From positions 64,363 to 128,362 of the forward strand of contig CANPWB010000002.1 of NCBI GenBank assembly GCA_947581925.1: a DNA stretch of 64,000 nt, written 5' to 3'. The notes under the pieces were generated by a model. That model saw only the letters and a program-made list of their open reading frames with translations, was not told where the DNA came from and made no database searches. The translations under genes were made by a program, and so were the position numbers. Origin of the DNA: an uncultured Clostridia bacterium. GTDB taxonomy: Bacteria > Bacillota > Clostridia > Christensenellales > CAG-917. Below, piece by piece: positions 15,401 to 45,291 of the stretch; positions within the stretch are counted from its first letter, which is position 1; each line of letters opens with the position of its first letter.

Positions 15401-15997
15401 CTCGAGGACCTCAAGCAGACGGAGGAGCGCCTCAATGAACAGATAGCCATTCGCGACGACATCAAAAAGGCGTACGACGACCTCATCAACATAATATCCG
15501 AACTCACGGACGAGATGCGCGACAAATTCAAGACGGCATTCGACAAAATAAACGAAAACTTCAAAGTCGTGTTCAGACAGCTGTTCGGCGGCGGCAACGG
15601 CGAGTTGAGGCTCAACGCTACCGAGTCCGACGACGTGCTGGAGCAGGGCATAGACATCTTCGCGCAACCGCCGGGAAAGAAACTCCAAAATATTGGATTG
15701 CTTTCGGGCGGAGAGCAGGCGCTTACGGCAATATCCATACTGTTTGCGATTCTCAAGCTCAAGCCCATGCCTTTCTGCGTGCTCGACGAGATAGAAGCCG
15801 CGCTCGACGACGCAAACGTCAACCTGTTTGCGGAGTTTTTGAAGAAATTCAGCGACTTCACGCAGTTTATCGTCATCACGCACCGCAAGCCCACGATGCG
15901 CCACGCGGACACCATATTCGGCGTGACGATGGAGGAAAAGGGCGTCACGAAGATAGTCTCGATAGAGTTTGAGGAAGCCGAGAAACACGCGCAATAA
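12407..15997 (+). CDS. smc: chromosome segregation protein SMC
   Basis: The TTG start at 12407 gives (M)LNFVRMELRGFKSF; the alternative ATG is at 12425. Walker A GPNGCGKSN, long coiled coils flanking a hinge, signature LSGGEQ and Walker B FCVLDEIEAALD are present. Confidence 0.95.
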   Translation: MLNFVRMELRGFKSFADKVVIPFKEGVTAIIGPNGCGKSNVADAIRWTLGEKSAKQLRGKQMTDVIFAGTEKRKSLSYCEVTLVFNNDDNHIFPGLGLDEVAITRKMDRSGKSEYYINNNRCLRQDIMKLFSDTGAGKDGYSIIGQGKVAEIMSAKPEERRHIFEEAAEIAGFRNSRTDSERKLEKAKANMQTADEVIAEINRRIGPLKKQAETAEKYFELKEQLKQLEVNLYIYNYENNQSIKQRILDRITSVKQELEKRETEYRIAVRKYDDSITMSSGIDRLYDERNAELMALRIAATKMEGDAALIREKISALQHDIARINDEMESIDNQLIVTDGLIAAAEQKKEEKFAEYLKLSETAAGLEEKYKDISASVEGREKDIEERNRDYIKVIEELGELKENYSSYIAEKGIQSERMKNLSDALKEKKDRLDAATTDLAIYDGKLATLKERMRQLVEEYNETVSNKNDAMEAKKAYEEDIVKLNSGLGLAQGNLELYKSIKEQYSGYQEAVQRLMQDSKHDPVLASKIWGVLAEVIKVPAEYVTAIDYALGGAMQNVLCETESDAGDLINYLKRKGYGRVTFRPYTACRPHPLEGANLNVLKEPGCLGLASKLISYEKRYEPFVQALLGSTVIVNNLDNAKLLFRKYNQAFRIVTLAGEIFTRAGEITGGSKRNQSQSLLAQEQSIASAFAAVEKCKSNIATMRSRLADKEDEIKECDARLEQISAEMSELKVDISLNESRSKQAFEETQRLNAEISESAEEYEKIRAIVADLDAKISSIDELERVAAERKDEYTSLYEESRSQGTQQRSERQELQEQVMQTRIMLASLNSEIDRAKGDISHYMRQRGELEGRKIDCAETLRQRQAELEAIADKAASATLSAEDAARIKEVEDDISSLNERKRNLSDEIKSLDEQKTALFEAKNDLNSKLVRDEAMLDNVDIEIRNQQEHILEEYDLTYTSSLEFRQEDFDAEAAPNAIAELKRAIARLGEVNPLALEDLKQTEERLNEQIAIRDDIKKAYDDLINIISELTDEMRDKFKTAFDKINENFKVVFRQLFGGGNGELRLNATESDDVLEQGIDIFAQPPGKKLQNIGLLSGGEQALTAISILFAILKLKPMPFCVLDEIEAALDDANVNLFAEFLKKFSDFTQFIVITHRKPTMRHADTIFGVTMEEKGVTKIVSIEFEEAEKHAQ

Positions 15998-16122
15998 TCG
16001 ATATAAGAGCAAATTTCTGACGCGCGCAAATATGCTAAATATACGAAATATAATGTGAAACAAAATATGTAGAATATTATTTAACGCGCGCAAACTGTCA
16101 AAAACATAAAACGGAGTGCAAT

Positions 16123-17016
16123 ATGGGATTTTTTCAAAAAATAAAGGACGGCATAAAAAAGACTAAGGACGCTTTTTCCAAAAAGCTGTTTTTTGCGTTT
16201 TCGGCGCGCTCGCTCGACGACGAGTTTTACGAGAGCCTCGAGGAGGCGCTGCTCACCGCGGACGTCGGCGTCACCGCTACGGAAAACCTCATAGAGGAGC
16301 TAAAGGACGAGATATTCAAGCAAAAGGCGAAGAAGCCCGAGGAGGCGAAGGAAATACTCCGCAAGCTCATGATAGAGGACATCGACTTTGACATTCCCGA
16401 GTACGAATACCCTCTCGTAATTTTGCTGTCGGGCGTCAACGGCGTGGGTAAAACGACGGCGATAGGCAAGCTCGCGCACATGTTCAAGGAGCAGGGCAAG
16501 TCAGTCGTAGTCGCCGCCGCGGACACCTTCAGAGCCGCCGCAAGCGAGCAGCTTGAGGTATGGGGACAGCGCGCGGGCGTACGCGTGATACGCCACGATG
16601 AGGGCGCGGATCCCGCCGCAGTCGTTTTCGACGCCATCTCCTCTGCAAAGGCGAGAGGCAACGACGTAATACTCATAGACACAGCGGGCAGGTTGCACAA
16701 CAAGAAAAACCTTATGGCGGAGCTGCAAAAAATTTGTCGCGTCGTCGGCAGAGAACTTCCCGACGCGGACTTCCGCAAATTCCTTGTGCTTGACGCGACG
16801 ACGGGACAGAACGCAGTCTCGCAAGCACAGATCTTCAGCGAGGATATCGAAACGGACGGCATAATCCTCACCAAACTCGACGGCACCGCGAAGGGCGGTG
16901 TAGTGCTTGCCATATCCGACGAGATAGGTCTCCCAGTCGTCTACGTTGGCGTTGGCGAAAAGATAGACGACCTCATCCCCTTCGACGCTACGGACTTCAT
17001 CAACGCACTGCTGTGA
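16123..17016 (+). CDS. ftsY: signal recognition particle receptor FtsY
   Basis: SRP-GTPase motifs GVNGVGKTT, DTAGRL and TKLDGTAKGG are present. Confidence 0.95.
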   Translation: MGFFQKIKDGIKKTKDAFSKKLFFAFSARSLDDEFYESLEEALLTADVGVTATENLIEELKDEIFKQKAKKPEEAKEILRKLMIEDIDFDIPEYEYPLVILLSGVNGVGKTTAIGKLAHMFKEQGKSVVVAAADTFRAAASEQLEVWGQRAGVRVIRHDEGADPAAVVFDAISSAKARGNDVILIDTAGRLHNKKNLMAELQKICRVVGRELPDADFRKFLVLDATTGQNAVSQAQIFSEDIETDGIILTKLDGTAKGGVVLAISDEIGLPVVYVGVGEKIDDLIPFDATDFINALL

Positions 17017-17083
17017 CCTTCATTACGTGGAGCGCTGCCCCACACCCCGGCAAAGGGCGCTTTGCCCTTTGCGATCCCAAGCT

Positions 17084-17139
17084 AAAAACGCGCGAACGTC
17101 GCAACTTTTCGTTGCTAGTTCGCGCGTTTTGGTTTGTTT
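17084..17139 (+). terminator. rho-independent terminator after ftsY
   Basis: AAAACGCGCGAAC..GCAAC-ttttc-GTTGC..GTTCGCGCGTTTT followed by GGTTTGTTT. Confidence 0.75.
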
Positions 17140-17210
17140 ACAATGGTCAAAACTCCTGCGTGAGAGCTTGATATTGACTGTAGAATAGTACGAGGTTTTT
17201 ACTTAAACCG

Positions 17211-17279
17211 GGGGATTCCTCGGCTACGCTCGGAATGACATGTATTGTTTGTCATTTCGAGCGTAGTCGAGAAATCCCC
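17211..17279. repeat. REP-like palindromic element with 30-nt arms
   Basis: GGGGATTCCTCGGCTACGCTCGGAATGACA (17211-17240) pairs with TGTCATTTCGAGCGTAGTCGAGAAATCCCC (17250-17279) at 27 of 30 positions. Confidence 0.75.
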
Positions 17280-17465
17280 TTGTTCGAGCGAATAAACGTA
17301 CCCTCTGTCCGAGTGTCCCTATACACGGACTTTGCCTTGTCCGAGCGACGTCGCGGAGCGAGCGGTTTCACGCTAAGTACGCAGTGAGGGCGGGTAACAG
17401 CGCTTATTTATTAAAATATTTGTAATTAAAATTCAAATTATTTACATGATGTACGGCAAAATCGC

Positions 17466-17494
17466 TTGACACCGAATGTTTATTTGTGTAGAAT
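17466..17494 (+). promoter_or_regulatory. sigma-A-type promoter for ylxM-ffh
   Basis: TTGACA (17466-17471), a 17-nt spacer, then TAGAAT (17489-17494). A second TTGACA-containing copy of the upstream module lies at 17498-17518. Confidence 0.55.
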
Positions 17495-17562
17495 ACTGTA
17501 CGGTAAATTTGCTTGACAGACTAAAGTGTTGCGCGGCTTGATAGCAATGCTCGGAGGGTGCT

Positions 17563-17871
17563 ATGGACAGATTTGAAATATCCGATCTTCGCTCATACTA
17601 CGGCGCATTGCTCACCAAGAGGCAAGACGATATGCTGAGGATGCGCTATGACGAGGACTTGTCCTTCGGCGAGATCGCGGAGATTATGGGCATATCCAGG
17701 CAAGCTGTGCTGGACGGCATAGTCAAAGGCGAGCGTCATCTTGAGGAGATAGACTCCGCCCTCGGCTTTGTCGCGCGGGACGAAAAGATCAAGCAATTGC
17801 TGAATGCTCTGCCTTCCGACGGGGAAGTGGGCGCTGCGGTCAAAGTAATATTGCGAATTATGGAGGAGTAA
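17563..17871 (+). CDS. ylxM: YlxM/UPF0122 putative DNA-binding protein of the SRP operon
   Basis: YYGALLTKRQDDMLRMRYDEDLSFGEIAEIMGISRQAV (sigma-r4-like HTH). It lies immediately upstream of ffh. Confidence 0.85.
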   Translation: MDRFEISDLRSYYGALLTKRQDDMLRMRYDEDLSFGEIAEIMGISRQAVLDGIVKGERHLEEIDSALGFVARDEKIKQLLNALPSDGEVGAAVKVILRIMEE

Positions 17872-17872
17872 A

Positions 17873-19204
17873 ATGGCTCTATTTGAAAATCTATCCGACA
17901 GAATGAACCACATATTCTCGAAATTACGCAACCGCGGCAAACTCACGGAGCTCGAGATCAAGCAGGCTATGCGCGAGATAAGGGTGGCGCTTTTGGAGGC
18001 GGACGTCAACTATAACGTCGTCAAAGACTTCACCGCAAAGGTGAGCGAGAAGGCGCTCGGCGAGGACATTTTAAAGTCGCTCACTCCCGCGCAACAGATC
18101 GTCAAGATAGTCAACGATGAACTTATCGCCCTAATGGGCAGCACTCATCAAAAGCTTGCCGTAAGCGACAAACAGCCCACCGTATACATGATGTGCGGAC
18201 TGCAAGGCGCGGGCAAGACTACGATGTGCGGAAAGCTTGTCTCCTACCTCAAAAAGCAGAATAAAAAGACCTTGCTTGTCGCTTGCGACGTATATCGTCC
18301 CGCGGCGATACAGCAGCTCAAAGTGGTGGCGGGCAAAGTCGGCACGGAGTGTTTCGAGATGGGGCAGATAAAGCCCGTCAAGATCGCCGAAGAGGGCATA
18401 AAGTATGCGCTCAAAAACGGCTATGACACCGTGATAATCGACACCGCGGGACGTCTGCACATCGACGAAGCGCTTATGGATGAGCTTGTCGCCCTCAAAA
18501 AGGCGATCAAGCCTACGGAGATACTGCTTGTCGTAGACAGCATGACGGGTCAAGACGCGGTCACAGTCGCGGACACCTTCAACAAGACCCTCGACATCAC
18601 GGGCGTCATAATGACGAAGCTGGACGGCGACACCCGCGGCGGCGCGGCGCTGTCAATTAAGGCGGTCACGGGCAAGCCTATCAAATTCAACGGCACGGGC
18701 GAGAAACCCGATGATATCGAGCCTTTCCACCCCGAGCGTATGGCGTCGCGCATACTCGGCATGGGCGACGTGCTCACCCTGATAGAGAAGGCGCAGGACG
18801 CTTTCACGCAGGAAGAGGCGCTCAAATTGGGCAAAAAGCTCAAAGAAAACTCCTTTACGCTCGAGGATTATCTGCAACAGCTCGAGAGCATGAAGAAGAT
18901 GGGCAACATCAACGATATGATCGCGATGATACCCGGATTGGGCGGCAAGCTTAAGGGCACGCCGCAGATAGACGAAAAGCAGATCGCTCATACAAAGGCG
19001 ATAATCCTCAGCATGACTCCGCAGGAGAGGCGCAATCCCGACATCATCAAGGCGTCGAGGCGTAAGCGTATCGCGGCGGGCAGCGGCACTTCCATACAGG
19101 AAGTCAACCAGCTCCTCAAGCAATTCGACACTATGAAGCAGATGATGGCGCGCATGCAAAAGGGCGGTATGCGCGGGCTGAGAGGCTTGAAAGGTTTGTT
19201 CTGA
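17873..19204 (+). CDS. ffh: signal recognition particle protein Ffh
   Basis: GLQGAGKTT, DTAGRL, TKLDGDTRGG and a Met-rich M domain are present. Confidence 0.95.
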   Translation: MALFENLSDRMNHIFSKLRNRGKLTELEIKQAMREIRVALLEADVNYNVVKDFTAKVSEKALGEDILKSLTPAQQIVKIVNDELIALMGSTHQKLAVSDKQPTVYMMCGLQGAGKTTMCGKLVSYLKKQNKKTLLVACDVYRPAAIQQLKVVAGKVGTECFEMGQIKPVKIAEEGIKYALKNGYDTVIIDTAGRLHIDEALMDELVALKKAIKPTEILLVVDSMTGQDAVTVADTFNKTLDITGVIMTKLDGDTRGGAALSIKAVTGKPIKFNGTGEKPDDIEPFHPERMASRILGMGDVLTLIEKAQDAFTQEEALKLGKKLKENSFTLEDYLQQLESMKKMGNINDMIAMIPGLGGKLKGTPQIDEKQIAHTKAIILSMTPQERRNPDIIKASRRKRIAAGSGTSIQEVNQLLKQFDTMKQMMARMQKGGMRGLRGLKGLF

Positions 19205-19317
19205 AAAGCGGACATTTGAGACTTAAAAGATAGCCTCAACCAAACAAAGCCTCAAACATCAAAATACGAAAACCAAAACAAAAAAACTATAAATCTCTTT
19301 ATTGGAGGACAAAAACA

Positions 19318-19566
19318 ATGGTCAAACTCAGACTCACAAGAATGGGCGCAAAGAAATCTCCCTTCTATCGCATCGTGGCGATCGATTCCCGCAAGGCAAG
19401 AGACGGCGAATACATCGATCAGATCGGCTACTACGATCCCATCTCCGATCCCAAGAAGATCGTCATCGACGGCGACAAGGCGAAGGAATGGATCGCAAAG
19501 GGCGCGCAACCCACGGATACCGTTCTCGGACTGCTCATCTCTCAAGGCATAATCGAGAAGAAATAA
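19318..19566 (+). CDS. rpsP: 30S ribosomal protein S16
   Basis: [21 protein letters not shown]. Confidence 0.95.
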
Positions 19567-19578
19567 GGTGGACAAAAA

Positions 19579-19818
19579 ATGATAGAGCTTGTTGAATATC
19601 TCGTATCCTCCCTCGTGCCCGAAGGCGATTATACCGTGGAGCAGAGGGATGGCGACGGCGCTGCGGAGATTGTCATTACGATATCCAAAAACGATATCGG
19701 CAAGGTCATCGGCAAGCAGGGAAGGATCGCGCGCGCCATCCGCACTCTCGTCAAGGCGGCAAGCGGAAAGGGCAGCGTCAAGTACAGCGTCGTCATTGAG
19801 GAAAAGAATGAGATCTGA
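19579..19818 (+). CDS. khpA: KH-domain RNA-binding protein (YlqC/KhpA family)
   Basis: 79 aa with the GxxG loop GKQGRIARAIRTL. It sits in the conserved position between rpsP and rimM. Confidence 0.8.
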   Translation: MIELVEYLVSSLVPEGDYTVEQRDGDGAAEIVITISKNDIGKVIGKQGRIARAIRTLVKAASGKGSVKYSVVIEEKNEI

Positions 19819-20314
19819 ACTGCTTATAGGCAGGATATTGCGCCCGAGAGGACTTGGCGGCGAGCTTAAAGCAGAGGTCTATTCGTCCGATCCGCATTGG
19901 CTTTCGGGCTATGCGGGGAGCGTCATCATAGACGGCAAGGCGTACCGAGTGCGGAAATTTTCGCACGAGGGCGCTTTCGGCTATATGCAGCTTGACGGCG
20001 TGACGACTGTGGACGCGGCGGAGGCACTCCGCGACAAGGACGTTTATGCGCTCCGCGACGAGTTGCCCAAAAACAAAGACGGCGAATATTACATCGTCGA
20101 CATTTTGGGACTTGACGTGATCGTGGGCGGCGACGACATAGGCACCGTCGTTGACGTGGCGCAGTACGGCTCCGCGGACGTCTACACCGTAAAGACGAAG
20201 GACGGACAACTGAGTTTTCCCGCGCTCAAGGCGCTCATCAAAAACATAGACCTCGAGGCGGGCAAAATGACACTCGACGCGACTATATTCGAGAGAGTGG
20301 TCGTGCGCGGCTAG
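19808..20314 (+). CDS. rimM: 16S rRNA processing protein RimM
   Basis: Internal ATG at 19808 (MRSELLIGRILRPRGLGGELKAEV) overlaps the KH gene by 11 nt. The ORF-track start at 19589 is an out-of-frame read-through of the KH gene region. Confidence 0.9.
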   Translation: MRSELLIGRILRPRGLGGELKAEVYSSDPHWLSGYAGSVIIDGKAYRVRKFSHEGAFGYMQLDGVTTVDAAEALRDKDVYALRDELPKNKDGEYYIVDILGLDVIVGGDDIGTVVDVAQYGSADVYTVKTKDGQLSFPALKALIKNIDLEAGKMTLDATIFERVVVRG

Positions 20315-20371
20315 CTCAAAAATATGCCTTTAGATATCTGAAATCAAGGACGTTTTGGCAGAATTATCGCT

Positions 20372-21091
20372 ATGAGATTCGATGTTTTGACGGTATTCAC
20401 TGGGTACTTTTCCGTACTCAACGAAAGCCTGCTCGGCAAAGCCATTGAGAGCGGGCGTTTTTCCGTAAATACAGTTGACATCCGAGACTTTTCAAAAGAT
20501 AAGCACCGCCGCACGGACGATATGCCTTATGGGGGCGGCGCGGGCATGGTCATGACTCCCGAGCCCATTATGGACGCGATAGACGCCGTGGATCCGCTGC
20601 ACGAGGCGCACAGGATATACCTCTCGCCAAAGGGCAAGGTGTTGTGCCAGCAAAAGGTGGAGGCTCTGGCAAAAAAGGAGAGGATACTCCTTCTTTGCGG
20701 CGACTATGAGGGCGTGGATCAGCGCGTTATCGACCTCGCCATAGACGAGGAAATATCCATAGGCGACTATGTGCTCACGGGCGGAGAACTTCCCGCGCTT
20801 GTGCTCATAAATTGCGTCGCGCGCTATCTCGACGGAGTGCTCGGCTCTAGCGAATCCACACTCGAGGAGAGCTTTTCAAACGGCTTGCTCGAATATCCGC
20901 ATTACACCCGTCCGGAAGTATTTTGCGGCATGTCCGTCCCCAAAGTTTTGCTGGGCGGCAATCATCGCGACATAGCGGAGTGGCGGCTTAAAAAGTCGCT
21001 CGAAGTCACTCAAGTGCGCCGTCCCGACCTGCTTGAGAACGTCGATCTTAGCTTATATCTGCCAAAGAAAAGACGCAAGCACAGGACATGA
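20372..21091 (+). CDS. trmD: tRNA (guanine37-N1)-methyltransferase
   Basis: TrmD motifs DDMPYGGGAGMVM and LLCGDYEGVDQRV are present. Confidence 0.95.
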   Translation: MRFDVLTVFTGYFSVLNESLLGKAIESGRFSVNTVDIRDFSKDKHRRTDDMPYGGGAGMVMTPEPIMDAIDAVDPLHEAHRIYLSPKGKVLCQQKVEALAKKERILLLCGDYEGVDQRVIDLAIDEEISIGDYVLTGGELPALVLINCVARYLDGVLGSSESTLEESFSNGLLEYPHYTRPEVFCGMSVPKVLLGGNHRDIAEWRLKKSLEVTQVRRPDLLENVDLSLYLPKKRRKHRT

Positions 21092-21247
21092 TATACCGCA
21101 TACATACGCGGGCATTAGTTTAGTCGCGGGCAATATAGAATACGCAGTCGCATGTTCTCGCGGATAATTGCATTTGCCGAGGCTAAGCCCGCGCAGGTGG
21201 CTTAGCTCGCGCGAGAATATAGCCAAAAGGAAATTATCGGAGTTTTT

Positions 21248-22084
21248 ATGCTGATACAGTGGTTCCCGGGACATATGACAAAGGCGATACGCCTTATGGA
21301 AGCCAACCTCCGTCTTGTGGACGCGCTCATCTACGTAATTGACGCGCGCGCCGTTGCGTCATGCATAAATCCCGTATTCGACAGGTTGCTTGCGGGCAAG
21401 AGAGTGCTCTATGTTTTCAACAAGTGCGACCTTGTGGAGGCGGAGGATATCGCGGGTTGGTGCGACCGTTTCATGCGCGAGGGCAAGACGTATGTCAAAG
21501 CCGTTGGCACAAGCGGAGATTGCTCGCAGATAGCGGCGGGACTCAGGCAGCTCATGGCGGATAAGATTGAAAAATTCTCCCAAAAAGGCGCGAACATAAG
21601 CGTACGCGCCATGGTGGTAGGAGTCCCGAACAGCGGCAAATCCACGATAATCAACGCAATGCTCAAGAGGGCAAAGGCGGTGACGGGTGACCGTCCCGGG
21701 GTGACGAGAGGCACGCAGTGGCTGTCCGTGGACGGCATAGACTTTTTGGATACGCCGGGCACGCTGTGGAGCAAGTTCGAGGATCAGAAAGTTGCGCATC
21801 ATCTCGCCTACATCGGCTCCATAAAGGACGACGTCCTCGACTGCGAACAGCTGGCGTTCGACTTTATCGACGAGGTGAAATACCTCTATCCCGACTGTTT
21901 CAAACTTAGATACGGCATAAGCGAGAGCGAAAATACGCTCGAAATATTTGACGCTATCGCCGCGGCGCGCGGTTACAGGCTGAAGGGCGGCGACCCCGAC
22001 TACGACAGGACGGCGAGAATGATAATAGACGAGTTCCGCAAGGGAAAGCTTGGCAAAATCTGCCTCGAGAAGGCTCAAAATTGA
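21248..22084 (+). CDS. rbgA: ribosome biogenesis GTPase A (YlqF)
   Basis: IQWFPGHM start. The GTPase is circularly permuted, with NKCDL (G4) before GVPNSGKST (G1) and DTPG (G3). Confidence 0.9.
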   Translation: MLIQWFPGHMTKAIRLMEANLRLVDALIYVIDARAVASCINPVFDRLLAGKRVLYVFNKCDLVEAEDIAGWCDRFMREGKTYVKAVGTSGDCSQIAAGLRQLMADKIEKFSQKGANISVRAMVVGVPNSGKSTIINAMLKRAKAVTGDRPGVTRGTQWLSVDGIDFLDTPGTLWSKFEDQKVAHHLAYIGSIKDDVLDCEQLAFDFIDEVKYLYPDCFKLRYGISESENTLEIFDAIAAARGYRLKGGDPDYDRTARMIIDEFRKGKLGKICLEKAQN

Positions 22085-22152
22085 AGAAATATCCGCATTT
22101 TCGGGCTACACGCCGCGTAAAGTGCGGAAATTTATTGTAAAGGGGAAAAGTT

Positions 22153-22764
22153 ATGGTACACGCAAGCGAGCTTATGTATTATGAAAACGAGCTTAGGTCT
22201 CGCGGATATCGGTATATCTGCGGCGTAGACGAAGTGGGCAGGGGACCGCTTGCGGGACCCGTGACGTGTTGCGCCGTAATCATGGACTTGGACAATCTCA
22301 TCGAGGGAGTGAACGACTCCAAAAAGGTGTCCAAAAGCAAGCGAGAAAAGCTTTTTTGGCAGATAAAAGAGAGAGCTGTAGCGTGTTCGATATGCTCTTA
22401 CGACCACGAGAAGATAGACGATATGAACATCCTCGAGGCGACAAAGGCGTGTATGAAGGACGCCGTAATGTCGCTTGACGTAAAACCCGATATCGTCATA
22501 GTGGACGCGCTCAAATTGGATATCCCATTTAAGACGTTCGGCATAGTGCACGGCGACGCGCTGAGCTATTCCATAGCGTCCGCGTCAATTCTCGCAAAAG
22601 TGACGAGGGACGCATTTATGGCGGACATGGCAAAACTCTATCCCGCCTATGATTTCGAGCACAATATGGGCTACGGCACGGCAAAGCACATCGCCGCGCT
22701 CAAGGAAGTCGGAGCGTGTCCCATCCACAGGCAGAGCTTTATTAAGGGGATATTGGCACAATGA
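22153..22764 (+). CDS. rnhB: ribonuclease HII
   Basis: GVDEVGRGPLAGPV and DSKKVS motifs are present. Confidence 0.9.
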   Translation: MVHASELMYYENELRSRGYRYICGVDEVGRGPLAGPVTCCAVIMDLDNLIEGVNDSKKVSKSKREKLFWQIKERAVACSICSYDHEKIDDMNILEATKACMKDAVMSLDVKPDIVIVDALKLDIPFKTFGIVHGDALSYSIASASILAKVTRDAFMADMAKLYPAYDFEHNMGYGTAKHIAALKEVGACPIHRQSFIKGILAQ

Positions 22765-23216
22765 ACACAAAAGCGTCCGGCAATATTGGAGAACAGCTCG
22801 CGGCGGAGTATCTCGAAAAGCAGGGCTACAGGATATTGGAGCGCAACGCGGTATACGGCGGGTGCGAGGCGGATATAATCTGCGAGGCGTATGTCGATGA
22901 GAAAGGATGTCCCATACAGCAGAGAAAAGTTGGGCGCATAATGGGGCATATTTTCAAAAAGACGCCCAAAGGAGTGCGTACGCTCGTATTTTGCGAGGTC
23001 AAGGCGAGGGAGAGCGACGCGTACGGCAGCGGCGCGGAAGCGGTCACTCCCTACAAGGCGGGCAGATATGTTAAGGCGGCAAAGAGCTATCAATCGGCGC
23101 ACGGCTCAGTGGGGTGCCCGACCCGATTTGACATAATCGAGATATCCTCGGACGAAGTCCACCATATCATCGACGCCTTTAATGAAAACGACGCAATATA
23201 TCCCCGTGGCAGGTGA
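22761..23216 (+). CDS. yraN: YraN-family (UPF0102) endonuclease-like protein with an internal insertion
   Basis: GEQLAAEYLEKQGYRILERN .. EADIIC .. LVFCEVKAR core. About 28 extra residues lie between the D-I-I and VEVK segments. The start overlaps the rnhB stop. Confidence 0.75.
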   Translation: MNTKASGNIGEQLAAEYLEKQGYRILERNAVYGGCEADIICEAYVDEKGCPIQQRKVGRIMGHIFKKTPKGVRTLVFCEVKARESDAYGSGAEAVTPYKAGRYVKAAKSYQSAHGSVGCPTRFDIIEISSDEVHHIIDAFNENDAIYPRGR

Positions 23217-23232
23217 CATTAAGGAGTCAGAT

Positions 23233-23865
23233 ATGAAAAGAAAGATTTTTATCATTACTGCAGTTGTATTTGTAATTACGCTTGTGCTTTTTACATGTGC
23301 GGCTTGTGGAAAAAACGAAACTCCGCGAGAAGAAGTTACAAAAGTCGGTGAGGAGCTTGTCCAAAACGGGAAATTTACATCCTTCAACGCGACGACCAAA
23401 CAGTTTGAAGGTTGGACTTCATACTCATCCAAGACGAGCGGTTTTGCTTTTGGCGTATCGTATCCGTCGGACATTACGGATAGCAATGTGAGGCTGTACA
23501 TTGACAACAGCTCCGCAATGTACAGCAATATGCAACAGAGGATCCACGTTGACACAAACAAGATATACAAAGTCAGCGTAGACATCTGGGTCACGACGCA
23601 AGACGGGCTCAGCGGCGATTACGGCGCGTATGTGGCGTTCCTCGAAAACACGGAGTACAAGTTTGCCTATACAAAACAGCACACGGACGGTATGGTCACA
23701 AAGACATTCTATGTGCGCCCGAGAAATACTGACTATCTCACGCTTGCGCTGTGCCTCGGCACTCAAGAGCAAGGGGTAGCGGGACACGTGCTCTTTGACA
23801 ACGTATCCATGAGGCGCATGAACGATAATCAAGTTCCCGATAGTGTTACGGTGTACGAGATATAG
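23233..23865 (+). CDS. secreted lipoprotein with CBM4_9/CenC-like jelly-roll domain (short paralog)
   Basis: ATG at 23233 follows AAGGAG (23221-23226). The signal peptide ends in a lipobox-like FTCAACG. The mature part begins EELVQNGKF..W, as in CenC-type carbohydrate-binding modules. The 3' ~305 nt are about 97% identical to 24685-24989. Confidence 0.6.
   Translation: MKRKIFIITAVVFVITLVLFTCAACGKNETPREEVTKVGEELVQNGKFTSFNATTKQFEGWTSYSSKTSGFAFGVSYPSDITDSNVRLYIDNSSAMYSNMQQRIHVDTNKIYKVSVDIWVTTQDGLSGDYGAYVAFLENTEYKFAYTKQHTDGMVTKTFYVRPRNTDYLTLALCLGTQEQGVAGHVLFDNVSMRRMNDNQVPDSVTVYEI
23345..23807 (+). repeat. direct repeat copy A (paralogous CBM-like domain)
   Basis: Aligns colinearly with 24533-24989. 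The core 23503-23807 shows about 8 mismatches in 305 nt by manual count. Confidence 0.9.
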
Positions 23866-23970
23866 TTTCGCCACACGAAAACAAACGAGCGTATAAAAGC
23901 GCCATCAATAAAAAATGCAAAAATTCATGGCAAAATGAGGGTAAAATCGGGATTTTATATGTCATTTTGC

Positions 23971-23999
23971 TTGTCTAAGTAAAAAATATATGTTATATT
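23971..23999 (+). promoter_or_regulatory. sigma-A-type promoter (extended -10) for rplS
   Basis: TTGTCT (23971-23976), a 17-nt spacer ending in TGt, then TATATT (23994-23999). This leaves a ~75-nt leader before the rplS ATG. Confidence 0.5.
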
Positions 24000-24074
24000 A
24001 TTACGCGTGACTCGGGTGTTCCGCTGGCAGAGAGGCTGTTAAGAACATTTCGCAATATAGGAGGTTAAGTCATT

Positions 24075-24413
24075 ATGAACATCATCGACACCATCGAGAA
24101 AGAAGGCATGAGAACAGATCTGCCCGTCATCGCAATTGGCGACCAAGTCAAGGTCAACGTCAAAGTCATCGAAGGCACGAGAGAGCGTGTGCAGACCTAT
24201 GAAGGCGTCGTCATCGCAAAGAAAAACGGCGGCATCCGTGAGACTATAGTCGTCCGCCGCGTTACATTCGGCGTAGGCGTAGAGAGGACATTCCCGCTAC
24301 ATTCGCCCAAGATTGAGAGCATACAGGTCGTGCGCCACGGCAAAGTCAGACGCGCAAAACTGTATTATCTCAAGAACAGGACAGGCAAAGCGGCAAAGCT
24401 TAAGGAAAACTGA
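24075..24413 (+). CDS. rplS: 50S ribosomal protein L19
   Basis: [39 protein letters not shown] and [20 protein letters not shown] are present. Confidence 0.95.
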
Positions 24414-24438
24414 CAACAGGTTTTCAAAGGAAGCAACG

Positions 24439-26595
24439 ATGAAAAAGAAAGTAGTTATCATACTTGCGACAGTGCTGGTTGTTATGCTGGCACTTTTCGC
24501 ATTTACAGCGTGCAACAATGCGAGCAGCGATGTCGGGGAGGAGCTTGTCCAAAACGGCTCCTTTGCAGCATTCAACGGTACTAATAAACAGTTTGACAGT
24601 TGGACTTCATACTCATCCAAGACGAGCGGTTTTGATTTTGGCAAATCCACGTCATCAGACGACAGCGAGTCGAGACTCTATATCGACAACAGCTCCGCAA
24701 TGTACAGCAATATGCAACAGAGGATTCACGTTGACACAAACAAGATATACAAAGTCAGCGTAGACATCTGGGTCACGACGCAAGACGGGCTCAGCGGCGA
24801 TTACGGCGCGTATGTGGCGTTCCTCGAAAATACGGAGTACAAGTTTGCCTATACGAAACAGCACACGGACGGTATGGTCACAAAGACATTCTATGTGCGC
24901 CCGAGAAATACTGACTACCTCACGCTTGCGCTGTGCCTCGGCACTGAAGAGCAGGGGGTAGCAGGTCACGTGCTCTTTGACAACGTATCTGTACAGAGAG
25001 TGGAGAAGGCGGATGTCCCCGGCGACGCGTCGATAATCAACTTCCGCAAAGCGGTCACGCTTGCAAACGATACGACTGTTTCCGGCATACTCTTCGTGGT
25101 TTTCCTTACGCTGTTCACAGTCGCGCTATTCGTTTGCGTATACGTTTTGCTCAGAAGGCTGTACGCAAGCCCCAAGGCATTCGTCAACTTCGGCGACAAC
25201 GGCACTTCGGAAGGCGGCAAACTGCTTGCTCCTCCGCAAGACGGCAAGTGGTATCATAATGCCGCATTTATCGCGGCAATGCTCATGCTCGGGACATTCC
25301 TTGTGAGGATCATCTTCCTGCTTACGATGAATGGCACAGGCGTCGAAACCACAATGGCAAAATTGGTCGAGACGACGCGCTTGCTCGGCCTAAAGAACGG
25401 CATATCGAATTATCTTGTAAACAACTCGGGCAGCACTATGTCGCCGGGCGCGCTCTACATCCTCGCCGTGATAGGCGCGATGGGCGCAAAATTGCCGATA
25501 CAGTCCGTGTCAATACTCATCAGATTTGTCAATGTGCTTGCGGATATGGCTATCGTCGCAATGATATATTTCTACGGCAAAAAGCGCGTAGGCAACAGAC
25601 TCGGCACGATATACGCCGCGGTGTATGCGCTCACTCCCTTCGTATTTGTCATGAGCGGTCTTGTAGGCAGCTTTGAGAGCGTGCTCATAGCGCTTATGCT
25701 TGCGACTGTCATACTCATGGTCAACAAGCAATATCTTGCGACTTACTTCATGGCGACGCTCGCGTCCGTGTTCGATCTCCGCGCAATGGCGATAGTGCCC
25801 ATCATCGTCGCGTACTTCGTGTATATGTACTTGAAGGACGACGCAGACCTCAAAAAATTCACGTCTAAACGCGCGCAGATAGTATTCGGGCTTGTCGCAT
25901 GTTTCGTGCTCGGATATATACTCACGCTGCCTCTCGCGATAGACAGGATAGCGGCCGGCGACGCTTTCTATGGCTTTAAGGTCATAGTCGGAGAGATGAC
26001 AAACAACTCGAAATTCGTCATGAACGCATTCAACCTCTACGGCATGGTCGCGATGAACGGCAGAAACGTTACAAAAGGCGTGGCGATACTCAACCTCATC
26101 TTCATCATTGTGCTTGAGGCGTATGCGATATCGCTGTACTTCAAAAACCGCAACAGGCAAGAGCTTGTGCTACTCGTATCCTTCGTGCTCGCGGTGATAG
26201 CGGTGTTTACGGTCAAGGTGAATTACACCTATCTGCTGCTATCGCTCGCGTTCGCATTCATCTACACGATGATAAGCGGCGACAAGAGGATGTACATCAT
26301 CACGGGCGGATACAGTGTGCTCGGCTTTTTGCAGCTCGGACAGTTGCTCAACCAGAGCGGTATGATAGCGGCAAATCCCACGACCGCGCTCACCAACTAC
26401 GAGACGACAAGCCCGTTCTTCATAATCTTCTGCGTATTTGCGGTGTTGCTTACGGGCTACTATGTGTACGTAGTGTATTCTATTACAAACAACTCTAAGA
26501 TAGTAGACATCAAGGCTATGCCTGACAAATTCGGTAAGACTCTCAAGAATTTCTTCAAAGAGCTGAAATTGCGCTTTGGAAAGAGCGGCAATTGA
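24439..26595 (+). CDS. lipobox signal + CBM4_9-like ectodomain fused to a ~14-TM GT-C-like (Gpi18/PMT_2/DUF2029-like) membrane domain
   Basis: Internal ATG at 24439 (MKKKVVIILATVLVVMLALFAFTAC). Residues ~30-200 are paralogous to gene 23233-23865. They are followed by many hydrophobic helices and a loop (..GISNYLVNNSGSTMSPGALYILAVIG) resembling the first periplasmic loop of GT-C glycosyltransferases. The ORF-track start at 24313 overlaps rplS and is rejected. Confidence 0.55.
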   Translation: MKKKVVIILATVLVVMLALFAFTACNNASSDVGEELVQNGSFAAFNGTNKQFDSWTSYSSKTSGFDFGKSTSSDDSESRLYIDNSSAMYSNMQQRIHVDTNKIYKVSVDIWVTTQDGLSGDYGAYVAFLENTEYKFAYTKQHTDGMVTKTFYVRPRNTDYLTLALCLGTEEQGVAGHVLFDNVSVQRVEKADVPGDASIINFRKAVTLANDTTVSGILFVVFLTLFTVALFVCVYVLLRRLYASPKAFVNFGDNGTSEGGKLLAPPQDGKWYHNAAFIAAMLMLGTFLVRIIFLLTMNGTGVETTMAKLVETTRLLGLKNGISNYLVNNSGSTMSPGALYILAVIGAMGAKLPIQSVSILIRFVNVLADMAIVAMIYFYGKKRVGNRLGTIYAAVYALTPFVFVMSGLVGSFESVLIALMLATVILMVNKQYLATYFMATLASVFDLRAMAIVPIIVAYFVYMYLKDDADLKKFTSKRAQIVFGLVACFVLGYILTLPLAIDRIAAGDAFYGFKVIVGEMTNNSKFVMNAFNLYGMVAMNGRNVTKGVAILNLIFIIVLEAYAISLYFKNRNRQELVLLVSFVLAVIAVFTVKVNYTYLLLSLAFAFIYTMISGDKRMYIITGGYSVLGFLQLGQLLNQSGMIAANPTTALTNYETTSPFFIIFCVFAVLLTGYYVYVVYSITNNSKIVDIKAMPDKFGKTLKNFFKELKLRFGKSGN
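24533..24989 (+). repeat. direct repeat copy B (paralogous CBM-like domain)
   Basis: See copy A. The offset is 1188 nt, becoming 1182 nt after a 6-nt indel. Confidence 0.9.
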
Positions 26596-26633: not shown

Positions 26634-26672
26634 GGAGGGGGATTGACAATTGTCGGTCCCTCTTCATTTATT
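26634..26672 (+). terminator. putative terminator after the membrane-protein gene
   Basis: GAGGG-gattGACaattGTCggt-CCCTC followed by TTCATTTATT. Confidence 0.4.
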
Positions 26673-26944: not shown

Positions 26945-27451
26945 ATGTATTTAAAGATCACACAGAAGTATTGGACCATAGGAGACAAGTTCGCGTTGAC
27001 GGACGAAAACGATTGCAATGTGTTTTTTGCTAAGGAACAGTTGTTCAAATTGCTCTCAAAATTTGATTTGTATGATTTAAACGGAGCGGTGCTCTATCAT
27101 ATGGAGGCAAAGTTAAAATTCTTTCTTAGTTACTTTGTGATAACAACCGGCGCGGGTCTCGAAATCGGATATATAAAGGAAAGGGTGCACTGGCCGGGTT
27201 TCCGCCGCGCGAGCATGAAGGTGGGGGATATCGACATCAAGATAAAGGGCGGCCCCATCCATATGAAAGCCATGAAAAAAGATGCGAACGGCAAGTGGGA
27301 CAAAAAACATCCCGTCGTGAAGTCTACAAAGAAGTTGTTCAGGATAAGGGATATCTATGCTGCGGAGATCGATGAGAATATGATAGACCCCGCGGTAGGC
27401 GCGCTTGTCGCGATTTGGTATGACAAGATCCGCTACGGACGCAAGCACTGA
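26945..27451 (+). CDS. YxjI / LURP-one-related (tubby C-terminal-like, DUF567) family protein
   Basis: MYLKITQKYWTIGDKFALTDENDCNVFFAKEQLFKLLSKFDLYD matches the N-terminal beta-strand pattern of the YxjI/LOR family as I remember it. 168 aa. The gene is AT-richer than the core genes. Confidence 0.55.
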   Translation: MYLKITQKYWTIGDKFALTDENDCNVFFAKEQLFKLLSKFDLYDLNGAVLYHMEAKLKFFLSYFVITTGAGLEIGYIKERVHWPGFRRASMKVGDIDIKIKGGPIHMKAMKKDANGKWDKKHPVVKSTKKLFRIRDIYAAEIDENMIDPAVGALVAIWYDKIRYGRKH

Positions 27452-27612: not shown

Positions 27613-29064
27613 TTACCAGAGGTCGTCGTTTCTCACTACGGACGCACCTTGAGCTGCGCGGGCAATTGCGTCAATGCCTTTTTTTGCGGCGTCCTTGCCA
27701 AGGTAGCCGTCGTTTGTTATGGCGACGACATTGCCGTTTGACGCGATGAGGCGCAGGCGGAATTCATTTTTATTATCAAGATAGATCTCCCACTTGGGGC
27801 ACTTTTGCTCGACAGGTTTCTTGAGAGTCTGATCCTCGATTGGCGCGGTCGCGGCATTGTTCATTACGCTTTGAATGCCGCCCTTGCACGACGCAAGATC
27901 TTTGTATGCGCCGCCCGGCACAGCAAGCACTCTCTTGTTTGAAGAGTAAAGTTTGTAGACAAAATTGCCTTTGTCAGTCTTTTTGATGACGAATTTGCCG
28001 TGTTGAGGCTTGGTCTCGTCTGCCTCGATCAAAACTTTTTCTTCATCATTGCTCATATTATTGTCCTCCTTTTTGGCGGTTGTTTTCTTTTCTGCAGTGG
28101 CTTTAGCTGCTGGAGCCGCGTCCTTCTGCGCGTTTTGAGCGGTTACATCTGCCGCTACATTATTCTGTTTGGAGTTGTCGGCAGGCTTTTTCGCCGTTTT
28201 CTTTGCGGGTTTAGCCTCTGCCTCTATTTCGCTGCTCGTTTCGGACGTCGTTTTCTTCTTGGACGACTTTTTGACGTTTATCGTGGCGGCTGCCCACACG
28301 CCTTCCGTTGCGGCGCTTTTTTTGGAGCTATAGGGGTCTAAATTATCGTCGGACTCGTTGCCGTATTCTGTCCTCGCAATGCGAGGTTTTGAGGAATTTT
28401 TGTTATGAGGCTTAGCTGACGGCTTTTCTGTAGTGATCGGGGCGGGGGAAACTTCTTGCGTTTGCGCAGGCTCATCATGCGCAGGTTCTTCTTGCGCAGG
28501 CTCTTCTGTAATAAGTTCTGATCCTTGTTCTTCCGAGCTTTCGGCTTGCTCTTCCGACGCTTGAGAGGCTGACGGTTCTTCCTCTTGAGAATCGGAGGAT
28601 CCGTCCTCTTGATCGACGGGCTGTACGGTCTCTTCAGAATTGGGCTGCTCATGTGATTGATCGTCGGACGGTTCGTCCGCTTGATCGTCGGACGGTTCGT
28701 CAAAGTTTTCCTCGGCAGGCTCTTCAGACTCCTCAACATGATCGGCATCCTCGGCATCTTCATCAAGTTCTTCGCCAAGGGATTCGTCTTCTACAAGCTC
28801 TTCCTCTTCATCAATCTCGTCTTCTACTATGAGTTCTTCCTCTTCATCAAGCTCATCTTCTTCAATAAGCTCATCCTCTTCGACAAGTTCATCTTCTACG
28901 ATGGGGTCCTCTATCTCATCGATTTCATCAACTTCCTCGAGCATTTCAAGTTCTTCCTCATCATCGCTCTGCTCAGAAGAGTCGAGAAGGACGCCGACAG
29001 GGGCATACTTGTCGTATTCTACGACCTCGCTGTTCAAAAAGACTTTTTTGTCGTCATTACCCAT
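27613..29064 (-). CDS. disordered acidic-block / basic-block protein with two C-terminal YegP (DUF1508) domains
   Basis: 483 aa. Residues ~30-200 are mostly D/E (EDELVEEDELIEEDELDEEEEL.., DEPSDDQADEPSDDQ). Residues ~200-345 are K/A/S/T-rich (KPAKKTAKKPAD, AEKKTTAKKE). The C-terminus has two YegP-like repeats (GKFVIKKTDKGNFVYKLYSSNKRVLA..; KWEIYLDNKNEFRLRLIASNGNVVAI..GYLGKDAAKKGIDAI). Confidence 0.7.
   Translation of the reverse strand: MGNDDKKVFLNSEVVEYDKYAPVGVLLDSSEQSDDEEELEMLEEVDEIDEIEDPIVEDELVEEDELIEEDELDEEEELIVEDEIDEEEELVEDESLGEELDEDAEDADHVEESEEPAEENFDEPSDDQADEPSDDQSHEQPNSEETVQPVDQEDGSSDSQEEEPSASQASEEQAESSEEQGSELITEEPAQEEPAHDEPAQTQEVSPAPITTEKPSAKPHNKNSSKPRIARTEYGNESDDNLDPYSSKKSAATEGVWAAATINVKKSSKKKTTSETSSEIEAEAKPAKKTAKKPADNSKQNNVAADVTAQNAQKDAAPAAKATAEKKTTAKKEDNNMSNDEEKVLIEADETKPQHGKFVIKKTDKGNFVYKLYSSNKRVLAVPGGAYKDLASCKGGIQSVMNNAATAPIEDQTLKKPVEQKCPKWEIYLDNKNEFRLRLIASNGNVVAITNDGYLGKDAAKKGIDAIARAAQGASVVRNDDLW
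28657..28704. repeat. 24-nt tandem duplication inside the acidic region
   Basis: ttgatcgtcggacggttcgtc occurs twice at period 24. On the coding minus strand it encodes DEPSDDQ twice. Confidence 0.85.
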
Positions 29065-44964: not shown

Positions 44965-45291
44965 TACTGCGAGGCTAGTCTGTAAGCCGAGTTCTGTGTT
45001 CGGTTGCCATCTATCTAGGCGGTATATCGCTATACCGCTCAAGCGATGTGGGGAGCGCGTGGGCTGCATAATGCTCCCGATCTTGCATCGAGTGGGGTTT
45101 ACATCGCGCCTTGTCGCCAATTTGCGGGTGAGCTCTTACCTCGCCTTTCCATCCTTACCCGAAATTCGGGCGGTATTTTTCTGTTGCACTGTCCTTGAAG
45201 TCGCCTTCACAAGTAGTTAGCTTGCACTCTTGCCCGTTGATGCTCGGACTTTCCTCAAATATTTCATGCGGCAACCCGGCTAGCTCGCAAC
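44965..45291 (-). ncRNA. rnpB: RNase P RNA (bacterial type A)
   Basis: The reverse complement contains GAGGAAAGTCCGAGC, ACAGAAAAATACCGCC, GGTAAGGATGGAAAGGCGAGGTAAGAGCTCACC and ACAGAACTCGGCTTACAG. 5' TGCGAGCTAG pairs with 3' CTAGCCTCGCA (P1). A promoter lies upstream and a terminator downstream. Confidence 0.92.

Follow-up and report, generated by a model that had tools for sequence, protein, structure and literature searches.

We analysed a 64,000-nucleotide stretch (the window) of contig CANPWB010000002.1 from an uncultured Clostridia bacterium (GenBank assembly GCA_947581925.1), in which rplS, the gene for ribosomal protein L19, stands between the two copies of a direct repeat. The copies belong to two paralogous genes, a short one upstream of rplS (gene A) and a long one downstream (gene B), and A is restricted to a single lineage. 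On balance, we favour a partial gene duplication with non-reciprocal copying, or gene conversion, between A and B as the origin of this arrangement. The position of rplS between the repeat copies is an incidental result of the site where A landed, since rplS already lay beside B before A arrived. Feature coordinates are collected in Table 1; relatives and other assemblies of the locus are given by number (L001, L002 and so on), L002 being the nearest relative.

The repeat covers 23344–23808 and 24532–24990, which align colinearly at an offset of 1188 nt that changes to 1182 nt after a 6-nt indel (23473–23478, ATTACG, in A only). A repeat search recovered it in two parts, 23344–23459/24532–24647 with 84% identity at a spacing of 1188 nt and 23479–23778/24661–24960 with 95% identity at a spacing of 1182 nt; no other direct or inverted repeat of at least 50 nt was found in the whole 64-kb window, so that the pair stands far above chance. 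The repeat corresponds to the shared 5′ coding part of the two genes, which are paralogous over their 5′ ~600 nt, and beyond its 5′ end homology continues at low identity across both signal peptides, beginning at 23233 and 24439 (48 of 87 nt identical). An initial annotation, made from the sequence alone, had described a colinear repeat of ~460 nt with this shift in offset, about 8 differences in its 3′ 305 nt, nearly all of them synonymous, and a mosaic 5′ part of identical and strongly diverged blocks. Repeat search and codon alignment confirm this description: between 23503–23807 and 24685–24989 there are exactly 8 differences (at 23544, 23649, 23673, 23736, 23764, 23772, 23781 and 23784 of the A copy), 7 of which are synonymous and 1 of which exchanges Q and E, and the identical blocks quoted for the 5′ part are present in the alignment. 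A ninth difference, at 23808, is synonymous. The core is 97% identical overall and 98.7% identical over 23503–23735, and the longest perfect match between A and B spans 104 nt. Between the copies lie only the 54-nt tail of A with its stop codon, a 209-nt spacer, rplS and a 25-nt gap; promoter, leader and rplS had been named as the sole intervening elements, a list to which the tail and stop codon of A have to be added.

Divergence between A and B, estimated by the Nei–Gojobori method as synonymous (dS) and nonsynonymous (dN) substitutions per site, changes abruptly along the genes. Synonymous sites are saturated in the signal peptide (proportion of synonymous differences 0.79, dN 0.46), reach a dS of 0.50–0.70 in the 5′ part of the domain (dN ~0.2), drop to 0.135 in the core (dN 0.004) and are saturated again, together with the nonsynonymous sites, in the tail. 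Identical and different synonymous codons are distributed 89:8 in the core compared with 27:10 in the 5′ domain (Fisher p=0.009) and 31:21 in all the rest (Fisher p=5.6e-6). The pairwise alignment and dS/dN comparison proposed in the initial annotation thus yields a strongly heterogeneous picture, with a core dS of 0.135 against saturated ends, and uniform divergence of the two copies, named there as a finding that would speak against recent exchange, is contradicted by a 4- to >10-fold difference in synonymous divergence between segments. For the same reason it is barely credible that A and B are an old, uniformly diverged duplicate pair in which protein-level constraint alone created the variable 5′ and constant 3′ parts. 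The core does encode conserved β-strands and the dN/dS ratio (ω) is low everywhere, but the same core shows a dS of 0.68–1.4 between orthologues, so the low value between A and B does not reflect synonymous constraint, and A is absent from all relatives examined, L002 included.

We compared A and B with L002 as a third sequence and counted the sites at which two of the three agree. In the signal peptide, 39 sites join B to L002, and none joins A to B or A to L002. Columns 165–225 give 14 sites for A=B, 1 for A=L002 and 3 for B=L002, and in the core (columns 300–576) the corresponding counts are 44, 3 and 5. In the second hypervariable loop patch, HV2 (columns 225–270), A=L002 prevails with 11 sites over 2 for A=B and 3 for B=L002, and in the tail B=L002 accounts for 27 sites, A=L002 for 4 and A=B for 0. 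Judged by these sites, the middle of A is sister to the resident B and the ends of A are deeply divergent. Within HV2, A keeps the allele type of close relatives and B carries the type of another species; with L004 as the third sequence, B=L004 at 15 sites, and B and L004 share derived bases and the 6-nt deletion. The locus thereby displays two features of gene conversion between paralogues, a tract that is closer between paralogues than to orthologues and whose flanks behave in the opposite way, and heterogeneous dS in the absence of synonymous constraint. As a background, the window and L002 differ by a dS of 0.27 in the transmembrane (TM) domain of B and of 0.14 in rplS. Because the core dS of 0.135 lies below the TM value, the A–B core would have coalesced after the split of the window and L002 lineages, consistent with the absence of A from L002.

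The repeat-bearing domain of B, which resembles a carbohydrate-binding module (CBM), is itself unusually divergent. Between 24540–24990 of the window and 6003–6453 of L002, dS amounts to 1.56 in the 5′ part and 0.68 in the core, 2.5–6 times the 0.27 of the TM domain, at an ω of 0.14–0.19. High dS at low ω argues that this domain changes through the uptake of divergent alleles rather than through positively selected point mutations. Loop variants are shared reticulately among species; P0007, for example, has the motif FNATTKQF like A. As a general pattern, the CBM-like domain would be the recombination hot spot and the fast-diverging part of the B family.

Gene A was found in one uncultured rabbit-gut Clostridia lineage only. 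Wherever upstream DNA is present (79 species-representative loci, further contigs of the European Nucleotide Archive and 2 metagenome loci), relatives have the order (rnhB-yraN)-rplS-B with a single CBM-like copy, and no gene A occurs across these loci, including that of L002, whose B protein is 91% identical at the amino acid level. The rplS-B pair, with 15–35 nt between its members, is present in ~80 species of uncultured gut Clostridia and Christensenellales-like bacteria, and a distant relative, L088 (GenBank MT835528.1), retains it behind other upstream genes in the order rsgA-rpe-rplS-B (L088 2390–4905). With ~80 relatives that carry rplS-B and none that carries A, rplS-B is by comparison of these loci the ancestral operon and A a later, lineage-specific insertion into the yraN–rplS spacer. 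MT835528.1 is filed as 'UNVERIFIED: Bacteriophage sp.'; its positions 14132–20626 encode rsgA, rpe, rplS and a B-family protein and look like bacterial chromosome. As the sole phage match it was considered as a phage relative of B and rejected, since rsgA-rpe-rplS-B marks a bacterial contig.

In an alignment with L002, L001 and L004, the inserted segment takes the place of ~50 nt of the relatives' yraN–rplS spacer; in L002, ~50 nt stand opposite 23217–~23885 of the window. Homology to relatives resumes at ~23885, and from 23905 onwards the window is identical to L002 through promoter and leader, with few differences in rplS. We considered the patch of 100% identity to L002 over 23905–24540 as a recombination tract with the repeats as its bounds and rejected this on the basis of sliding identity and dS; by these measures it represents ordinary strong conservation of promoter, leader, rplS and signal peptide. 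Searches beyond the locus agree with a narrow distribution of A. Among 5.8e9 sequences, only A itself and P0188, a 219-aa call of gene A from an upstream start in L085, were recovered as A-like short proteins, a weak negative because the word search missed even B. An HMMER scan of 1.84e9 representatives returned no A-like short protein, the short matches (86–461 aa) being contig-end or frameshifted fragments of B with a B-type signal peptide, and no mobile-element relative was found in IMG/VR or plasmids, nor anything A-like in phages. In the comparison of related genomes suggested earlier, the short paralogue is absent from ~80 relatives, and the bracketing of rplS is not shared by them. rplS became bracketed when A came to lie in front of an rplS-B operon that already existed, without this being a maintained arrangement.

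Gene A begins 16 nt past the stop codon of yraN, with an AGGAG ribosome-binding site (RBS) upstream, and is probably transcribed by read-through from the yraN operon. Its unique coding sequence, signal peptide plus tail, amounts to ~165 nt. The signal peptide keeps six residues that are invariant in the family (V12, L17, L19, F20, A24 and C25), so that A24–C25 of the lipobox-like motif are retained, but a Cys stands at position −3. At the same time, its G+C content at third codon positions (GC3) is 0.22, compared with 0.625±0.08 (minimum 0.41) in the first 37 codons of 30 window genes and 0.25–0.62 in 77 orthologous signal peptides. The retention of the six invariant residues despite the low GC3 suggests that the segment derives from a divergent member of the B family and not from an unrelated lipoprotein. 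The domain of A matches Pfam CBM_4_9_1 below the gathering score (E=2e-4, 21.9 bits against a cut-off of 27). About 5 changes in the core fall on the A branch, and with only 1 of them nonsynonymous (P≈0.008 under neutrality), purifying selection on A is suggested.

Two further assemblies from other samples, L083 and L085, carry A-rplS-B at 99.8% identity to the window. L083 runs from a partial gene upstream of rbgA through rbgA, rnhB, yraN, A and rplS into the 5′ end of B, and L085 comprises yraN-A-rplS-B and crosses both repeat copies; gene A is 100% identical in L083 and differs at 2 sites in L085. The signal peptide and tail of A and both junctions, to yraN and to the spacer upstream of rplS, are unique sequence. 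The mis-assembly that the initial annotation had named as a possibility is therefore not borne out: recovery of the same structure from three samples, with unique junctions, makes it unlikely. More specifically, it is very improbable that a strain variant of the 5′ end of B was misplaced upstream of rplS during metagenome assembly. All data are short-read contigs of metagenome-assembled genomes (MAGs), with breaks or variant switches inside the repeat and rplS, as such an artefact would leave; against it stand ~165 nt of unique coding sequence with its own RBS and stop codon, junctions that no repeat could create and a structure seen in three samples, once across both copies.

The sole repeat-internal differences among these assemblies occur at 23649 and 23673 in A, equivalent to 24831 and 24855 in B. 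The window has C and A at these sites in its A copy and T and G in its B copy, L083 has C and A in both copies, and L085 has T and G in both. Identical runs of 104 and 62 nt flank these sites, the configuration of a de Bruijn bubble. We rejected these variants as proof of ongoing conversion, since conversion is here inseparable from bubble-popping by the assembler. In a separate observation, six clustered sites in the leader and the 5′ coding part of rplS (24055 and 24127–24137, including V18A) set L083 and L085 apart from the window; there both are identical to L001, a species of 85% identity that co-occurs in the sample of L085. This L001-type patch (24055–24137) reflects either inter-species recombination or chimeric metagenome assembly.

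Partial duplication with conversion builds on what is observed directly, that is the anatomy of the locus, the lineage specificity of A, its mosaic ancestry, the heterogeneity of dS and the domain folds; from these we infer the direction and number of conversion events, a foreign origin of the ends of A, and its expression and any function. A divergent B-family 5′ fragment of ~650 nt, comprising signal peptide and CBM-like module only, would have been inserted into the yraN–rplS spacer without damage to the promoter and leader of rplS. The ends of the fragment, signal peptide and tail, would come from a divergent, possibly foreign source with low GC3. In a second step, non-reciprocal homologous copying with B would have homogenised ~470 nt (~23344–23808), the youngest tract being ~310 nt with a dS of 0.135, younger than the split from the nearest relative that lacks A (TM dS 0.27). 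The loop patches HV1 and HV2 would either have escaped homogenisation or have been replaced later.

A one-step origin is possible, if rather doubtful. Here, A would have been born as a chimera of a copy of the resident B domain and unrelated or foreign ends, with no later conversion between A and B; the identity of the core would date this event, and the divergent patches would have followed through import of alleles into B (HV2, of an L004-like type) and diversifying selection on loops. A single event after the split fits a core dS of 0.135 below the window–L002 background of 0.27, HV2 of the close-relative type in A with B as the outlier, and differences between A and B in columns 165–225 that are nonsynonymous in 3 cases and synonymous in 0; the dS of 0.68–1.56 in the B domain against 0.27 in the TM domain indicates that outside imports occur. 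Such a birth nevertheless requires a precise illegitimate join of several parts (signal peptide, domain and tail), and the 3′ edge of the core is denser in differences (6 in 73 nt versus 3 in 233 nt), as predicted by nested tracts. With two sequences per genome, the one-step origin is inseparable from conversion.

Several points weigh against partial duplication with subsequent conversion. The same mosaic could arise if A had been copied once as a chimera and B had then taken up alleles from outside, with no later conversion between the two, and outgroup polarisation of synonymous sites is noisy. No donor for the ends of A was found among 77 orthologous N-termini including those of low-GC3 lineages, the best signal-peptide matches reaching 44–48% amino acid identity. 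On the side of the assemblies, the L083 contig stops at 24917, immediately short of the next site at which A and B differ; the variant sites at 23649 and 23673 look as if L083 and L085 had been homogenised in opposite ways, which bubble-popping explains equally well; and the L001-type patch in both suggests that these short-read contigs can be chimeric in conserved stretches. The initial proposal of a recent duplication or ongoing gene conversion stands, with these points considered, for recent copying or conversion, supported by core dS and by the three-sequence comparison; for its ongoing part, the variant sites of L083 and L085 are no proof.

Between repeats of this kind (104-nt perfect match, 97% identical core), RecA-dependent recombination is expected. 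Deletion between the copies would, as a matter of logic, fuse the 5′ end of A in frame to the 3′ part of B and remove rplS, which would be lethal if rplS is single-copy, so that only gene conversion or tandem amplification would be viable. The idea that rplS stabilises the paralogue pair is accordingly sound in its logic; it finds no sign of selection, and rplS-B is older than A. We give little credence to an extension of this idea in which A would function on its own as a CBM-like module, secreted or anchored by lipid, with the other loop allele, serving as decoy, competitor or conversion donor for B, with rplS as a 'recombination lock'. If this held, A might counter recognition of the glycan-handling protein B by phages, antibodies or lectins, and the essential rplS would force A–B exchange to be non-reciprocal and would preserve the two-allele state.

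Hardly any credence is due to a programmed or selected cassette system, in which A would be the donor or an alternative cassette for the exposed loops of B and rplS the lock. Identical blocks of 20, 34 and >230 nt on either side of HV1 and HV2 could serve conversion, two different HV2 allele types are present in the genome, and a repeat deletion would remove rplS. Against this, only two copies exist within 64 kb; A is a complete gene with RBS, ATG, signal peptide and stop codon and not a silent cassette; the arrangement is absent from ~80 relatives; and there is no recombinase, invertible element or guide sequence nearby. The window, L083 and L085 show no difference in the HV regions of A or of B, a weak test given three near-clonal samples. 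The cassette organisation for surface variation read into the locus at the outset is not supported, given the copy number, the completeness of A and HV patches that are identical in three assemblies.

The rplS leader hairpin is conserved in sequence in L001, L002 and L004, and its folding energy is not unusual (z=0.73); no Rfam match at gathering level was found at the locus, L19_leader being sub-threshold only. The 25-nt gap between rplS and B contains no promoter, and B is cotranscribed with rplS in a conserved predicted operon. Upstream, the order trmD-rbgA-rnhB-yraN-rplS (20372–24413) is the same in the window and in all relatives, rplS not directly following trmD; the classical operon is rpsP-rimM-trmD-rplS.

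Gene B, seen as an ancestral gene of a housekeeping type, belongs to a family of >170 clusters at 45–100% identity from uncultured gut Clostridia and Christensenellales-like MAGs that has no Pfam or NCBIfam assignment. Its signal peptide ends in LFAFTA-C25, with A24 and C25 invariant in 23 family sequences. The AlphaFold model (mean predicted local distance difference test score 73) shows an N-terminal helix, a β-sandwich at residues 33–190 and ~13 TM helices. The N-terminal domain is predicted to be an outward-facing CBM4/9-like jelly-roll β-sandwich, to which carbohydrate binding could be ascribed only by resemblance: B matches CBM_4_9/CBM_4_9_1 (PF02018/PF22637) at 16.9 bits, below the cut-off of 27, matches of this type reach E≤0.01 in 11 of 23 family members (best 4e-7), a profile of the 23 sequences matches the hyaluronan-binding module 4d0q in a search of PDB profiles (E=3.5e-4), and Foldseek against PDB superposes the sandwich on CBM70, CBM16 and CBM4 structures at template modelling (TM) scores of 0.6–0.73 (4d0q 0.73, 2zex 0.70, 1gui 0.67). 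The membrane part resembles the polytopic fold of class C glycosyltransferases (GT-C), with Foldseek TM scores of 0.65 over 447 columns to GPI-mannosyltransferase I (9wno) and 0.56 to ALG6 (6snh), and glycosyltransferase activity is predicted at most. Weak PMT_2 matches occur in 9 of 23 relatives (best E=1e-4), none in protein B of the window, for which NCBIfam also gave nothing. The 23-sequence alignment contains no invariant acidic residue in the first outward loop; conserved columns of residues 298–337 are G299, G301, L316, P336 and G337, none of them D or E. To call A and B surface-protein genes, as had been done, is apt for the exposed CBM-like module, and B as judged by model, Foldseek and PMT_2 matches is mostly a GT-C-fold-like polytopic membrane protein.

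Table 1 Features of the A-rplS-B locus (window coordinates)
Feature	Position	Strand	Description
yraN (UPF0102)	22761–23216	+	Pfam PF02021, E=3e-22; last gene of trmD-rbgA-rnhB-yraN block
Lineage-specific inserted segment	23217–23885	+	RBS, gene A and ~20 nt of 3′ flank; right boundary approximate
Gene A	23233–23865	+	210 aa: signal peptide, complete CBM4/9-like β-sandwich, 18-aa tail, stop codon
Signal-peptide segment of A	23233–23343	+	Deeply diverged from every B orthologue; compositional outlier
Repeat copy 1, 5′ part	23344–23472	+	Identical blocks of 20 nt and 34 nt alternating with hypervariable patches HV1 and HV2
HV1	~23371–23397	+	Hypervariable patch, loop-encoding, repeat copy 1
HV2	~23455–23502	+	Hypervariable patch, loop-encoding, repeat copy 1
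Repeat copy 1, core	23479–23808	+	9 differences from B in 306 nt counted from 23503
A-specific tail and stop codon	23809–23865	+	Residual similarity to B linker only, 21/54 nt identical
rplS promoter-like site	23971–23999	+	TTGTCT, 17-nt spacer, TATATT, TG upstream; conserved in relatives
L19-leader-like hairpin, rplS 5′ untranslated region	24017–24047	+	Rfam RF00556, 17.4 bits versus gathering 36, E=0.85
rplS (ribosomal protein L19)	24075–24413	+	Pfam PF01245 Ribosomal_L19, E=2.4e-47; sole gene between repeat copies
Gene B	24439–26595	+	718 aa; signal peptide with lipobox-like motif, CBM4/9-like domain ~33–190, ~13 TM helices, GT-C-like fold
Repeat copy 2 in gene B	24532–24990	+	5′ part 24532–24660, core 24661–24990
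Terminator-like hairpin and T-run	26634–26665	+	14-pair stem, 7 GC pairs; ends rplS-B transcription unit

Two further features of the window were recorded. On the minus strand, 27613–29064 is an open reading frame (ORF) of 483 aa with an acidic, low-complexity N-terminal half and tandem E/D-rich repeats of 18-nt period at 28784–28918; its C-terminal part matches NF041908 (HVO_2922 family) in two stretches (E=2e-21, 75.7 bits, below the 90-bit cut-off), and its homologue in L081 carries PF07411 (DUF1508). The ORF adjoins a LOR-family gene (26945–27451), and this neighbourhood of the ORF is kept in the nearest relatives. Also on the minus strand, 44966–45287 encodes bacterial RNase P RNA class A (RF00010, 234 bits), the sole Rfam match at gathering level in the window.

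Among known systems, silent-cassette loci for antigenic variation (Neisseria pilE/pilS, Borrelia vlsE, Treponema tprK) share with this locus variable segments between conserved blocks of two copies in the same orientation. They differ in that here the one extra copy is a complete gene and there is no array; moreover, the three assemblies give no sign of switching, and relatives lack the arrangement. The model of B superposes both on CBM4/9 modules and on GT-C glycosyltransferases (PMT_2/PIG-M/ALG6-like), whereas the window proteins remain below Pfam gathering scores and the first outward loop has no invariant acidic residue. This unannotated rplS-linked family with CBM-like and GT-C-like domains in ~80 species is the more reusable lead to emerge from the locus.

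That essential genes limit deletions has been used as a model assumption and observed genome-wide for deletions mediated by insertion sequences (PMC12065110). The likeness is that recombinants in which the direct repeats had deleted rplS should die and be purged; the difference is that here this would apply to one interval of 1.2 kb and would be incidental to how the locus arose. For scanning genomes, the lesson is that an 'essential gene between repeats' can consist of an ancestral operon, here rplS-B, and one lineage-specific insertion, and not of a conserved system.

In gene conversion and concerted evolution between bacterial paralogues, of which tufA/tufB is an example (surveyed in PMC6053082), paralogues are likewise closer within a genome than to orthologues across the tract, exchange is non-reciprocal and the intervening genes stay intact. 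The tuf genes are full-length, ancient and recurrently converted across orders (PMC6053082), whereas the partner here is young, truncated and lineage-specific, and the tract covers ~310–470 nt of one domain. As in partial (segmental) gene duplication, A takes over from a multidomain parent only its signal peptide and first domain, and closes with a short novel tail and a new stop codon; unlike a simple tandem product, it is placed ahead of the neighbouring gene, has ends of foreign composition and came without a second copy of rplS. The nearest match to the locus is paralogue gene conversion together with partial gene duplication, an ordinary and known kind of event, by which a domain-level paralogue would have arisen beside an essential ribosomal protein gene and later have become partly homogenised with its parent.

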